13,022 bases of DNA from a virus. Its lineage: Duplodnaviria; Heunggongvirae; Uroviricota; Caudoviricetes. The number at the start of each line of letters is the position of its first letter. Position 1 is the first letter of the stretch. Location of the stretch: the IMG/VR virus record IMGVR_UViG_2534681935_000012. One strand, given 5' to 3'. A program made the position numbers. This document shows positions 1-6,000 of this stretch, piece by piece.

Positions 1-3000
1 CCATCAAACTGCTGGTTTACATTGATGATGCGGGACCAGCCATCAACGCCCACCACCGGAACGATGCCGTTCTGCTTATCAGGGAAGGCGTAAATTTCTT
101 TCGTCCACGGATTAAGGCCGTACTGGTTGGCGACGATCAACAATGCGATGAACTGCGCATCGCTGGCATCACCTTTAAATGCCGTCTGGCGAAGAGTGGT
201 GATCAGTTCCTGTGGGTCGACAGAATCCATGCCGACACGTTCAGCCAGCTTCCCTGCCAGCGTTGCGAGTGCTGTACTCATCCGCTTTATACCTCTGAAT
301 CAATATCAACCTGGTGGTGAGCAATGGTTTCAACCATGTACCGGATGTGTTCTGCCATGCGCTCCTGAAACTCAACATCGTCATCAAACGCACGGGTAAT
401 GGCTTTTTTGCTGGCCCCGTGGCGTTGCAAATGATCGATGCAGAGTGATTCAAACAGGTGCTGGGGCAGACCTTTTCCCATGTCGTCTGCCAGTTCTGCC
501 TCTTTCTCTTCACGGGCGATCTGCTGGTAGTGACGCGTCCAGCTCTGAGCCTCAAGACGATCCTGAATGTAATAAGCGTTCATGGCTGAACTCCTGAAAT
601 AGCTGTGAAAATATCGCCCGCGAAATGCCGGGCTGATTAGGAAAACAGGAAAGGGGGTTAGTGAATGCTTTTGCTTGATCTCAGTTTCAGTATTAATATC
701 CATTTTTTATAAGCGTCGACGGCCTCACGAAACATCTTTTCATCGCCAATAAAAGTGGCGATAGTGAATTTAGTCTGGATAGCCATAAGTGTTTGATCCA
801 TTTTTTGGGACTCCTGGCTGATTAAGTATGTCGATAAGGCGTTTCCATCCGTCACGTAATTTACGGGTGATTCGTTCAAGTAAAGATTCGGAAGGGCAGC
901 CAGCAACAGGCCACCCTGCAATGGCATATTGCATGGTGTGCTCCTTATTTATACATAACGAAAAACGCCTCGAGTGAAGCGTTATTGGTATGCGGTAACG
1001 CCGCGCTCAGGCGGCTTTGATAGTCATATCATCTGAATCAAATATTCCTGATGTATCGATATCGGTAATTCTTATTCCTTCGCTACCATCCATTGGAGGC
1101 CATCCTTCCTGACCATTTCCATCATTCCAGTCGAACTCACACACAACACCATATGCATTTAAGTCGCTTGAAATTGCTATAAGCAGAGCATGTTGCGCCA
1201 GCATGATTAATACAGCATTTAATAAAGAGCCGTGTTTATTGAGTCGGTATTCAGAGTCTGACCAGAAATTATTAATCTGGTGAAGTTTTTCCTCTGTCAT
1301 TACGTCATGGTCGATTTCAATTTCTATTGATGCTTTCCAGTCGTAATCAATGATGTATTTTTTGATGTTTGACATCTGTTCATATCCTCACAGATAAAAA
1401 ATCGCCCTCACATTGGAGGGCAAAGAAGATTTCCAATAATCAGAACAAGTCGGCTCCTGTTTAGTTACGAGCGACATTGCTCCGTGTATTCACTCGTTGG
1501 AATGAATACACAGTGCTGTGTTTATTCTGTTGTTTATGCCAAAAATAAAGGCCACCATCAGGCAGCCTTGTTGTAAATGTTGCAGGTATCAAGTAAGTAA
1601 TTAGATGGAGCGCCATAAATTATGAATTCATCGTTTGTCGGGTCCATCTCCATCTCTTGTCCTATTGCCATTCTTGCGTCAGTGTCGTCAGCGGCGAAGC
1701 ATAAAACAGCCCACGCACCCATTGTTTTAAAAAGAACTGCAATTGGCTGTGGTTTTACTGAATTTGCGTTAGCGCGAAAATCACAAATCGCACTTTCATG
1801 AAATTCCATATATCACCTCAAATAAGTGGTTTGCTGCCTAATTTCATTTTCTGGCGACCAACACAAGTCATCTTGCTGTCAGTTGTTTGGATTTACGGTA
1901 GCCTGCCGCGTAAAGAGCTACATTTGGAAGACAAGTTGAGCCTTCATATTTTCTGGTCAACGTTGTCAGTGTTATTACTTCTGCTCTCATTGCTGGTTTG
2001 CGTTTGCATTGTAAGACCACTCGTGATGGGGTTGGCCTGTGTAGTTTGTCGGAGCTAATCGCCTCCTGACTTTGCAGGTTTGCGCGACGAGCTCTACGGC
2101 GAGAAGCTGCGGTGCCTTTAAATTCTGTTTTTCTGGACATAGATTCCTCCCGAATAAACTTTGGCGATGCAATCTCGAAGCTCCTCCTGAGACGGTTGCT
2201 TCGGCATTGCATCCCACAGCTTATGTGGTTGGGTGATCTGGCTTTTCAGCCACGTAGTCGAGAGTCGACGTTGTTTAAAGAGCCTGCCAGTCTGTTCCAT
2301 TTGGCTTCCAGCGTCCTGCTGATGGTTAAATAGTACGATATGTACTTCACTTGGTCAATACAATTTGTTCTAAAACGGGGCGTTTTTTTACAACGCTTTG
2401 TATTTAATAGTATTGTTTTTTAGCGTGGGTGTATTGCCTCGGCGATGTAAGGAGAGATCAGAATTGCGTTGTTTAGTGAGTTGTATCTATTTATTTTCCA
2501 ATAAATACAATTGGTTATGTGTTTTTTGGGCGAGAGGAAAAGAAAACCCGGCATGGAGGCCGGGTTGATGATTAGCGGTGTGGCCTTGAGCGATAATGCT
2601 CACACACATGTTCAAGATTTCCATGCCTTATCCGTTCATAGGCATTCACATGAACTTCTCGATCGAATTGGTCATTCAAATTGTATGTAGACATCTGTGT
2701 TTTCTCATATTGGCGGCAGCCCTACAACCGCTTGAAAAAATGTACCAGACGCGCTAAGGTTACATCGCAAATATTGTGTACCTTAACAAGGGCTCCTTTT
2801 GGAGGCTCTGGTTAAACAGCATCAATGTCGGACTGGGGAGTTGGACATTGTGCTGAATGCTTTTGCATTATTGAGGCCGAACGTAAACCTTCAGAATTGA
2901 AGAGATGCGTTCGGCTTCTTCGTTTGTGATATCGTTAGGAATGCCTTTAATCGTTACTGTAACCCCTGATTCAGGTCGAAGAACTACTGGAAGATCATAG

Positions 3001-6000
3001 GTATGAAGTGCATTAGCCTTGCCTTCGACTTTTGTTGGTTCGCCAGTCAAATCTTTTTCCTCACTGGATTCTTTGTCAATCGGAGTGTATGGGATTTCTT
3101 CACCAGACTGGAAAGCTACAAACTTTTTGATTGCACTTTCCATGCGGCTTTTATATGCAGTAATGCTGCTGTCGCTAGGCTTCGGCTCAGTTGCGTTGAT
3201 GTATCGCTCGGCAAGCTCATTCACATCAAGCTGAGTAACATCACCCATTTCCTCTTCTTGGACTACCGTTAAGAGGCGAGCGGATGAGTTTTTTAAATTT
3301 CGAGCGGTGGCCTCCTTCATTATGTTCAGCGACATAAGCTCTTCAAGGAAGTCCTTGAATGCCTGCACGCTAACGTTTGACTTTGCCATTTGCTCTCTCT
3401 CTTACCTAAAGAAACAGCAGGCTGGGTCAGCCCTAACAACTTCAAGTGCATCGGTCAGAGAAAGCTCCGTGCTATACAGGTGTTATTTCATATCTTTTTG
3501 CATCCAATAAATTTTCCATCTGTCCAGAGAGCGGATGCACTTGATTCTTGTTGATGGCAGGACGTTTTTTCACCTGCCTCACCCTGCCATACAGGACGCT
3601 GCTCACCGATATCTATCGTCCGGTCATTGATGTTATAGACAATATCCAGATCATTACGGATATACTCAGATGGCCTTATGCTTTCAATGAATAGATGAAC
3701 TTCTTTTTGACCGCTTGATACTCATGGCCATTAAACTCCATCTATCCTCTTTACCCAAACGTCTCTTCAGGCCATTGGCTGGCGATAACTTTCCCCACAA
3801 CGGAACAACTCTCATTGCATGGGATCATTGGATATTGCGGGTTTAGTGGTTGTAGAAACACCTGACCGCTATCCCTGATCAGTTTCTTGAAGGTAAATTC
3901 ATCACCACCAAGTCTGGCTATGCAGAAATCGCCGGGCTCAACAGCTTGCTCAGGGTCAACCAGAATTAACATCCCGTCAGGAAAACTAGGTTTGGAACCT
4001 GTTGGTGCGGTCATTGAGTTACCTTCAACCTCAAGCCAGAATGCAGAGTCACTGGCTTTTTTGGTTGTGCTTACCAATCTCTCCGCATCACCTTTGGTAA
4101 AGGTTCTGAGTTCTGGAGAGAACATCCCAGCCTGAACATGAGAAAAAACAGGGTACTCATATTGTTTTTTAACTGGGGCCGATGAGTATTCGCCAACAGG
4201 TGAAAATGTCCCGTCGTGGTTGAATGATATGTTATCAATACCAAGGTATTTAAACACCACACCAATATCACTAAGAGATGGATGACGAGATCCGCGCAAC
4301 CAGTGTCCAATTCCACCCTGCGTCATACCTAGCTCTTCGGCTAACTTCTCTTGAGTTATGCCGAGCTCTTTCATTCTGGATCTAGCCAGTTCATACCATT
4401 TCATTTTCATGTCCTTATTATTACGCTCTGTACTGGAACCATCCATGCACAATGTGTATTTTTACTTGTATTTGAGAAGTACATATTGTATTTTTTATTC
4501 GTGGTTACTATGGAGGGCATATGAGCAACCTACGAAAATATCGAGAGTCACTGAATATCTCTCAAACAACACTTGCTAAGGCAGTTGGATGCACACAGGG
4601 AGCTATCGGACATTGGGAATCTGGTCGTCGCTTCCCAGACCTTAAAACATGCCGTGCTCTTGTTGCGTGTCTAAACAAGTTAGGCGCAAAAGTAAGTCTT
4701 GATGACGTGTTCCCGCCGGAGCACAAAGCCGCTTAATAAGCGGAGCCGCTCTTTGTAACAACGGACATTCGTCCTACGTCGCTGAAAAGCGAGTCCCAAG
4801 ATATCTGACCAACTAAGGCCATATGCGTTTCCACGCATACCTTTCAACTAACTATTCACTATTGGAAATCTTAAGAAATGGAACGAACAAGTTACAGCAA
4901 ACTATCACAGCGCGACGTTGATCGCGCAGAAACAGATTTACTCATCAACCTGTCAACGCTTACACAGCGCGGTCTGGCAAAGATGATTGGCTGTCATGAA
5001 TCGAAGATAAGCAGAACGGACTGGCGGTTTATTGCTTCGGTCTTGTGTGCTTTCGGAATGGCATCAGACATCAGTCCGATTAGCAGGGCTTTTAAGTATG
5101 CGCTTGATGAAATCACAAAGAAAAATCCCCGGCTGCCACCGAGGATTTTAAGCAAATTGATATGCAATTCTGAGGGAATTACTGGATCAATCCACAGGAG
5201 TAATTATGACAAAACGTCGTAAGAAATACCAGGAAAAAGAAGAGATTCGACACCCTGATTCACCTGAGGGATTAGTGGTAGCCGCAGCAAATAACAGGGC
5301 GTTCGCAGAGCGCCTTGTTGGTGTTTACAGACTAGCCAAAGCAGGAGTGAAACATGGGCGTCGTTAAGTTAGCTGATTACAGGCCTCAACTGGAGGTCGT
5401 GGAGCATCGCGTGGCAGATACCGAAGATGGTTTCATGCGCGTTGCTAACGAGATTACCGACAGTCTGCTGATGGCTGATTTAACCGTCCGGCAGTTGAAG
5501 GTGATGCTCGCTATCATGCGCAAGACATACGGATTCAATAAGCCGATGGATCGACTCACAAACACGCAGATAGCAGCCATGACAGGTATTCATCACACTC
5601 ATGTTTGCGCTGCCAAGCGCCAGCTTATTGAGCGTAAATTCCTCATTGCTGATGGCGTGAAAATCGGAGTGAACAAGGTGGTTTCTCAGTGGATTAGCCA
5701 GGACAGCTTAACATTAGCTAAAACAGCTAATAAAACATTAGCCAAGTCGGCTAATGGGTATAAGCCAAGTCAGCTAAACACAAAAGACAATATACAAAAG
5801 ACAATAAATACAAATACCCCCTTACCCCCTAACGGGGATGGCGATGGGCAGGTTAAACCTGAACGTCGCAAGGCAGAACGAATCGACTACGAATCCTTCC
5901 TGAACGCCTACAACACCGAAGTCGGTGACAGACTTCCACACGCTGTTGCGGTCAACGAGAAACGAAAACGCCGCCTGAAGAAAATTATCCCGCAACTGAA

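Follow-up and report, generated by a model that had tools for sequence, protein, structure and literature searches.

In phage lambda, the slot between the repressor gene cI and the promoter pL carries rexAB, which encode the sensor RexA and the polytopic membrane protein RexB, and lambda rex mutants are viable lysogens. In phage 933W, stk occupies the cI-to-pL slot. BstA of the Salmonella prophage BTP1 adjoins the repressor of its prophage and is a single protein of about 300 amino acids (aa) with a KilA-N-type domain. Among toxin-antitoxin systems, those of type II have the autorepressing antitoxin gene first, and in type V GhoS is a protein that acts on the toxin mRNA. Here, we analyzed a stretch of 13,022 nucleotides (nt) from a Caudoviricetes phage (IMG/VR record IMGVR_UViG_2534681935_000012), called the window below. 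These 13 kb contain the early and immunity region of a short-tailed Shiga toxin 2 (Stx2) phage of the VT2-Sakai/Sp5 type, and their cI-to-pL slot harbors, on the minus strand, an open reading frame (ORF) for a 173-aa protein (2868-3389). It is the first gene of a cassette, mobile and autonomous, that consists of promoter, gene, RNA, small ORF and terminator.

A first-pass annotation of the window had presented the ORF as unrecognised, and as a candidate exclusion or anti-phage factor. It is present where that annotation placed it, is conserved across genera, and lies in the slot on the strand of cI as described; homologues in other prophages hold the same slot. However, the gene was already annotated as H0093 in VT2-Sakai, ECs1184 in strain Sakai and ORF23 in Sp5, everywhere with the label hypothetical, and instead of standing alone it belongs to the conserved cassette. 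The ORF begins with ATG, with GAGAGAGAG ahead of it, and the ribosome-binding stretch (3390-3402) includes the junction of a 140-bp deletion (3398-3402) discussed below. Phage Stx2a_WGPS4 is 100% identical to the window except for one gap, and VT2-Sakai is 99.9% identical in the region of interest. An identical copy of the protein (100%) is carried by 44 phage records, and the gene was found in 234 of 5426 complete E. coli genomes. Full-length homologues with 41-83% identity occur in Salmonella, Cronobacter, Yersinia, Proteus, Providencia, Morganella and Serratia, and a profile search of 1.8 billion representative proteins recovered 661 clusters (50% identity) of 160-200 aa with the same layout. 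The ORF is far beyond chance and is a real gene.

The layout of the cassette was determined with the DNA 3' of the stop codon, taken from homologues in 65 IMG/VR loci. The order of gene, spacer of 147-175 nt, one of three types of small ORF and terminator is found in about 45 distinct loci; the cassette is seen in 32 distinct IMG/VR loci and in further loci from Proteus, Serratia, relatives of phage SH2026Stx1, Klebsiella and Cronobacter. In the window, the gene is followed on the minus strand by a 173-nt spacer (2695-2867) with a candidate structured RNA that has the orientation of the genes, by a 40-aa His/Cys-rich small protein gene in the variable small-ORF slot (H0092, 2572-2694) and by an intrinsic terminator that closes the cassette (2536-2566). 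The terminator, correctly placed by the first-pass annotation, has an 8-bp stem at 2566-2545 with 6 G-C pairs, followed by the U-rich tail UUUUCUUUUCC (-14.3 kcal/mol), and is labeled in AP000422 as 'putative rho independent terminator for pRM transcript'. Counterparts after the small ORF are found in SH2026Stx1, Klebsiella and Cronobacter, and one was present in every cassette inspected.

The 40-aa ORF, previously listed as possible, proved to be a real gene. It matches phrog_21154 (E 5e-8), a family with no assigned function, and comparison with a relative, whose neighboring homologue of the 173-aa protein is 37% identical, gave 15 identical codons, 18 with synonymous changes only and 7 amino-acid changes, a codon pattern that indicates purifying selection. 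The counterpart of its product in Salmonella phage Oslo is 95% identical, and that in SH2026Stx1 is 57% identical over 28 aa. A search with this protein returned just three clusters, probably because annotation tends to miss ORFs of this kind. The slot holds either this type (40-45 aa, His/Cys-rich, phrog_21154), a very basic protein of 56-61 aa (pI, the isoelectric point, of 10.4; phrog_33859), or a protein of 45-47 aa with a CxxC...CxC pattern and a weak match to a treble-clef zinc finger. Distant homology among the three types was considered and rejected, with hhalign probabilities below 1%. The types are shuffled relative both to the class of the spacer RNA and to the similarity of the 173-aa protein.

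The first 147-175 nt after the stop codon are conserved at the nucleotide level, with evident compensatory changes, and the small ORF is always next. The RNA predicted for the window spacer has a minimum free energy of -54.1 kcal/mol (z -3.9), and 0 of 200 shuffled sequences were as stable. On the minus strand it would form a hairpin P1 (~2817-2855), a multibranch structure closed by stem P2 (~2744-2812), and a U-rich single-stranded stretch with UCAAG plus a hairpin P5 (~2700-2743), after which come the Shine-Dalgarno sequence and AUG of the small ORF. The same layout is common to three classes of the element, A, B and C: the stop codon is immediately followed by a hairpin, after which come a multibranch under a long-range stem with UAGCGG-like motifs inside it, a single strand ending in CAAG or ACAA, a hairpin, and the Shine-Dalgarno sequence with AUG. 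The consensus of class A, which includes the window, was built from 6 sequences and has 44 pairs, in 10 of which both sides have changed. In class B, a five-helix structure of 33 pairs was evaluated on a structure-blind MAFFT alignment of 22 distinct sequences. Paired cells reached 91.7%, against 85.2 +/- 0.6% in shuffled alignments, and 17 pairs had double-sided changes; neither the pairing nor the double-change value was reached in any of 500 shuffles. When the 3' partners were slid by 1-3 columns as a control, pairing fell to 32-47%. This covariation supports a predicted five-helix RNA in the spacer. G-U combinations make up about 9% of the paired cells of the class B alignment, one U-G pair being invariant, which favors an RNA transcribed in the direction of the genes. 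In class C, the CUCC strand on the 3' side of stem P2 can alternatively pair with the small-ORF Shine-Dalgarno sequence GGAG, which hints at a possible translational gating of the small ORF.

A covariance model of class B (R1) scored 135 bits for an element in Proteus and 124 bits for one in Serratia, both immediately downstream of the homologous gene, and did not detect classes A and C; the kinship of these two with class B therefore rests on the shared layout and short motifs. A search with a 20-mer from the RNA side gave 16 matches, of which 14 are true elements, each directly downstream of a homologue of the 173-aa gene; the other two fall by chance within a viral ORF that is unrelated, and the model does not match them. 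Nothing in Rfam 15 matched the spacer at the gathering score; at a permissive E-value, matches were found at terminators alone, below gathering scores, and none over the spacer. Short ORFs that overlap the spacer were rejected as genes, as their frame and length vary by locus while the nucleotides covary as helices. The svsR small RNA (sRNA) of prophage NC-SV is unrelated and lies inside the cI of another phage, and the sRNAs EcOnc, AsxR, AgvB and HnrS of O157 prophages are located at other loci. Among close relatives, the tip of hairpin P1 (~2825-2845, minus strand) is found inverted: it reads CAACTCCCCAGTC in the window and in locus L042, and GACTGGGGAGTTG in loci L043, L050, L077 and L082, the hairpin being retained while a C-rich loop is swapped for a G-rich one. 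Regardless of function, the spacer has good support as a candidate new family of structured RNAs in Enterobacterales prophages.

The cassette generally has its own putative promoter, of the sigma-70 type. Of 39 distinct loci, 30 have a TTGnnn-16..18-TAnnnT motif 54-61 nt before the ATG, and inverted repeats lie over or beside the -35 hexamer. In the same 39 loci, GATC occurs at 17.1 per kb in the 120 nt upstream of the gene and at 3.1 per kb across the loci (~5.5-fold), which suggests control by methylation state or by a GATC-containing operator. These Dam sites often appear as CGATCGAT within the inverted repeats at -35 (for example in L055, L017 and L077). In the common form, represented by VT2-Sakai, the promoter is TTGCAT-17-TAAACT with the palindrome AAGACTTGAGTCTT, and VT2-Sakai and nearly all relatives have a hairpin terminator between cI and this promoter (GGTCGCAGAGGTGCGGCC followed by U6, -15.9 kcal/mol).

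The window lacks a 140-bp piece, corresponding to positions 3605-3739 of locus L001, that contains both the terminator after cI and the cassette promoter. The junction, at an AGAG microhomology 13 nt upstream of the ATG, is shared by 2 of the 234 E. coli genomes, those of the cattle strains O157:H7 YB14-1 and strain 150. An artefact was rejected, as the junction is present in these two complete O157 genomes, and the loss is a rare natural deletion variant, directly comparable with the common form. In the window, the interval between cI and the 173-aa ORF is 361 bp, and the remaining spacer (3403-3750, minus strand) has a weak 6-bp hairpin (3433-3419) and no strong terminator was found in it, so that cI transcripts should read into the 173-aa gene. 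The cassette of the window should therefore be transcribed solely as the tail of the cI message from pRM or pRE. The first-pass annotation had assumed transcription together with cI; this probably holds for the window alone, and does not hold for most relatives, with their own promoter and their terminator after cI. The joint loss of promoter and terminator would be expected if expression of the 173-aa gene must persist. Within this spacer (~3488-3649, minus strand), RefSeq (PGAP) lists a 53-aa hypothetical ORF starting with CTG (WP_434087148.1, strain PV15-279); this ORF appears doubtful and lacks a start at ATG, GTG or TTG.

The 173-aa protein is acidic and has no membrane segment, as first described, since its pI is 4.85 and its highest 19-residue hydropathy is 0.72. 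No Pfam or NCBIfam family covers it, the only matches being weak and SAM-like, and neither it nor the 40-aa protein matches PADLOC-DB 2.0 at E <= 1. It matches phrog_2602 over residues 1-173 (E 3.5e-102), a family with no assigned function, in keeping with the suggestion of an undescribed family. The structure prediction proposed by the first-pass annotation gave a confident two-domain model (AlphaFold2, 140-sequence alignment; mean pLDDT, the predicted local distance difference test, of 89). Residues 8-95 form a four-helix bundle (pLDDT ~97), residues 101-128 an acidic linker of low confidence, and residues 130-169 a conserved C-terminal beta-beta-alpha domain (pLDDT ~96). The modeled bundle resembles the core-binding (CB) domain of integrases and other tyrosine recombinases. 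Weak Pfam matches to Phage_int_SAM families were obtained in about a dozen of the 140 family members, and one homologue is labeled 'XerD' in a JGI record. Foldseek against the PDB gave nothing significant, yet the matches of highest probability are integrase CB domains; sequence identity to the CB domain is 7-16%. Foldseek against BFVD gave no significant match, a profile search of PDB sequences found nothing, and no known fold matched the C-terminal domain. The claim that the protein has no recognizable motif does not hold for the fold, given the CB-like N-terminal domain. The catalytic domain is absent, with a Phage_integrase match in 0 of the 140 members, and the protein is therefore not a recombinase; according to the model, it would be an example of an integrase CB domain serving outside a recombinase. 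Residues conserved in the family on helices 2 and 4 include T28, R82, the invariant Y79 and F90, and the C-terminal domain has the conserved motif P-x-D-L-T-x-x-E-A.

The cassette is found in different prophages and also outside them. Prophages of Serratia, Proteus/Providencia and Salmonella (phage Oslo) as well as the Stx1 phage SH2026Stx1 carry the homologue in the slot between cI and N. In Proteus and SH2026Stx1, cI is separated from the homologue by an additional gene, which in Proteus matches DUF3024. In the compared cI-slot loci, the identity of the 173-aa protein is 77%, 73%, 54% and 40%, and the neighboring cI is 69% or 54% identical to that of the window or has no detectable similarity to it. 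Because the neighboring cI types differ, the cassette is not bound to one immunity specificity. A lambdoid prophage of Klebsiella has a complete cassette in its nin region, in antisense orientation, and Cronobacter has a complete one in a chromosomal islet outside prophage, flanked by core genes (fbp, mpl, DUF4432 / darP, pmbA). In one Klebsiella prophage (L018, 2855-5767) the cassette adjoins Pfam matches to DinI, Cas_Cas1, AcrVA2-like and DNA polymerase III theta proteins; its sister prophage L017 is without the Cas_Cas1, AcrVA2-like and theta genes, which indicates a variable accessory hot spot. A related-locus search of genome contigs returned a single Proteus locus, and the Klebsiella-type protein used as query in viral contigs gave no match.

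Published experiments bear on the gene in two ways. Mondal et al. (Sci Rep 2016, PMC5155283) used sacB allelic exchange to delete the Sp5 genes of unknown function from a K-12 lysogen, in frame and without leaving a marker. ORF21 (ECs1180) and ORF23 (ECs1184) alone resisted deletion, while 43 other Sp5 mutants were obtained, and no conserved domain was reported for the undeletable genes (PMC5155283). In that design nine nucleotides were kept at each ORF end, so that the deletion of ORF23 leaves the sequence outside the ORF untouched and spares promoter, RNA and small ORF. In a 2025 Nucleic Acids Research study (PMC7618764), ECs1184 was found in the RNA-associated proteome (TRAPP) of uninduced enterohaemorrhagic E. 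coli (EHEC) Sakai, with a false discovery rate of 0.065, just non-significant. Its recovery from uninduced cells indicates that the protein is made in the lysogen, in agreement with the proposed expression from the prophage, and it is at best a weak or narrow RNA binder.

Taken as a whole, the cassette may be an autoregulated antidote-and-effector unit, similar to toxin-antitoxin systems, a reading to which we assign a probability of about 0.4. The 173-aa protein would be the regulator or antidote and would bind nucleic acid with helices 2 and 4, on whose conserved basic faces lie the TARNLKNS and YKSR motifs. Its target could be the inverted repeats of its own promoter or the structured leader RNA, the latter being probably the likelier in view of what is co-conserved. 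Binding would limit synthesis of the downstream small protein, whichever its type, and loss of the 173-aa protein alone would release both RNA and small protein from control, which would account for the failure to delete ORF23 from the Sp5 lysogen. The putative pay-off would be prophage retention by addiction, abortive infection upon superinfection, or both. The antidote-and-effector reading fits best because protein and RNA are co-conserved, the small product is exchangeable, the promoter has palindromes, and the first gene is undeletable alone. Since the small ORFs swap while the protein and the RNA layout persist, control on the RNA or promoter fits better than neutralization of one protein by another. 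A more specific version is rather doubtful: an integrase-CB-derived protein that has lost recombination would recognize a dedicated five-helix RNA, gate interchangeable zinc-finger-like small effectors, be needed for survival of the Stx2a (Sp5-type) lysogen, and pass as one unit among prophage slots and chromosomal islets.

Several observations weigh against the antidote-and-effector reading. The small proteins resemble no known toxin. The pI of 4.85 of the whole protein, and the acidic pI of its N-terminal domain, are unusual for a nucleic-acid binder, and the RNA-labelling (PNK) signal of tagged ECs1184 was no higher than that of the sfGFP control (PMC7618764). A distant homologue from a cyanobacterium (27% identity) lacks the RNA, and no zinc-finger-like small ORF accompanies it. 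In the SH2026Stx1-type loci L105-L107, a run of A8 instead of A9 in the linker-coding part (~4321) makes the protein stop at 121 aa, with RNA and small ORF intact. The A8 run may mark a genuine allele, null or phase-variable, or an error of homopolymer sequencing; if it is genuine, the 173-aa protein is not an indispensable antidote. The failed deletion of ORF23 is one study's negative result, for which other causes are possible, and its authors favor a role of ORF23 in lysogeny maintenance (PMC5155283).

In such a role, the CB-like domain would bind phage DNA and silence a lytic or toxic phage function, loss of the protein leading to induction or host death, and the protein would resemble MrpR and SroF, which are recombinase-derived repressors of SPbeta-type phages, or Mnt of P22. 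We consider this unlikely, as complete cassettes lie outside the immunity region in Klebsiella (nin, antisense) and outside prophage in Cronobacter, and the gene pairs with unrelated cI types and is conserved better than cI. In most phages, moreover, it has its own promoter and a terminator insulates it from cI, and lysogeny maintenance would leave the conserved RNA and the exchangeable small ORFs without a role. The autonomy provided by the promoter and terminator, which is moron-like, would suit a putative Rex-like or BstA-like system of exclusion or abortive infection, expressed from the prophage, that senses and blocks a superinfecting phage and is harmless and dispensable otherwise. This proposal, in line with the first-pass annotation, would also account for the slot, which is that of lambda rexAB, for the exchangeable effector-like position, and for the Klebsiella cassette in an accessory hot spot beside an AcrVA2-like Pfam match. 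However, PADLOC has no match for either protein, enzymatic, membrane or nucleoside triphosphatase domains are absent, and a dispensable system leaves the failed deletion unexplained; we consider exclusion unlikely. No phage-exclusion test of the 173-aa gene was found in the literature searched.

The strict co-conservation of RNA and protein would also be expected of a regulatory RNA module without a toxin, in which the RNA, released from the 3' untranslated region or by processing, is an active sRNA that retunes host or phage genes and the 173-aa protein serves it as a dedicated chaperone or stabiliser, in the manner of FinO with FinP. The marginal TRAPP association with RNA and the U-rich single strand after the closing stem P2 would agree with it, while the PNK signal at background does not (both PMC7618764 for the protein data). 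An Hfq-bound sRNA at this locus is not described in the literature searched, the strong sequence differences between classes A, B and C, save short motifs, would be odd for a base-pairing sRNA, and purifying selection on the small ORFs means that they are not mere by-products. We hold such a module to be quite improbable. It is very improbable that the cassette is a dispensable cargo operon of minor function, with a technical failure behind the deletion result and a stable intercistronic mRNA structure in the spacer. A single negative deletion result with no follow-up found in the literature and the possible natural frameshift of a homologue would be consistent with cargo, but all parts are strongly conserved, evolve under purifying selection across genera and move as a unit, and the same method gave 43 other Sp5 mutants (PMC5155283).

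The surroundings of the cassette are those of a lambdoid immunity region. Upstream lies the cI repressor gene (HTH_3 and Peptidase_S24 domains; 3751-4452, minus strand), and the downstream limit of the slot is formed on the same strand by pL with three OL operators (~2404-2329). A promoter scan identified pL as TTGACC-17-TACTAT at 2358-2330, and the operator coordinates were carried over from AP000422 using a 202-base offset. Beyond pL, the minus strand contains in order nutL, N (1868-2212), H0090, ea10, cIII/kil and gam, and the plus strand carries cro, cII, O and P. H0090, which is ECs1180 or ORF21 of Sp5, is an 83-aa ORF downstream of N (1558-1809, minus strand) that belongs to phrog_2471, with function unassigned; Pfam, NCBIfam and PADLOC found no domain in it. 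The lambda cIII thermoregulator (RF01804, 88.5 bits) was detected at the start of cIII (889-947, minus strand). Other Rfam matches above the gathering score are isrK (10771-10847, plus strand) and C4 antisense RNA (10873-10956, plus strand), located directly 5' of ORFs 11009-11773 and 11842-12570, where related phage records list an antirepressor (Ant) and Roi. This region (10771-10956) resembles a c4-ant immunity module of the P1/P7 type within an Stx phage. Directly after P (DnaB-like) there is a 230-aa ORF (7545-8237, plus strand), in a position where VT2-Sakai has different small ORFs. By eye, it seems to contain an HNH-like endonuclease motif followed by an AP2-type DNA-binding domain, and is a candidate homing-endonuclease-like insertion.

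Phages of the Sp5/VT2-Sakai type carry stx2a in the E. coli O157:H7 lineages behind these phage records, and the retention and quiescence of the prophage bear on toxin release. The cassette adjoins the repressor, is expressed in the lysogen, and holds the sole undeletable gene of the early region besides ORF21; each of its three parts is without a known function or family. Should the antidote-and-effector reading be true, it would represent a new mechanism of addiction or abortive infection centered on an RNA, and a handle on lysogen stability. Because slot, fold and operon logic are shared with known systems while no rexAB-like sequence or domain, no recombinase catalytic domain and no match to a known toxin or antitoxin family was found, and because the RNA is outside Rfam, we assign the cassette to no known family and regard it as new in kind, though the gene itself has long been annotated.

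With lambda rexAB the cassette shares slot, strand, lysogen expression and a terminator just before pL. Unlike it, the cassette mostly has its own promoter and a terminator after cI, together with a structured RNA and a small ORF. Neither a RexA-like sensor nor a RexB-like polytopic membrane protein was detected by Pfam, PADLOC or hydropathy, and the cassette has no sequence or domain kinship with rexAB or 933W stk, no membrane protein and no kinase; the KilA-N-type domain of BstA was not found in its proteins by Pfam either. ORF23 is reported as undeletable, unlike rex, whose mutants are viable, which points to an antidote-like or lysogeny-maintenance logic. The N-terminal four-helix core-binding (SAM-like) domain is shared with tyrosine recombinases; in contrast to them, the 173-aa protein is without the catalytic R-H-R-Y domain, ends after a 40-residue beta-beta-alpha segment and has an acidic bundle, whereas MrpR and SroF retain the whole recombinase fold. 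The closest likeness in organization is with type II and type V (GhoS) toxin-antitoxin systems: a compact, mobile two-gene unit with promoter inverted repeats, an undeletable first gene and a small second product, the genes being adjacent and co-oriented as in type II and, as their arrangement suggests, co-transcribed. The parts of the cassette match no known toxin or antitoxin family, and what sets it apart from these systems is a conserved structured RNA of 150-175 nt between its genes and three unrelated small proteins for one partner family.

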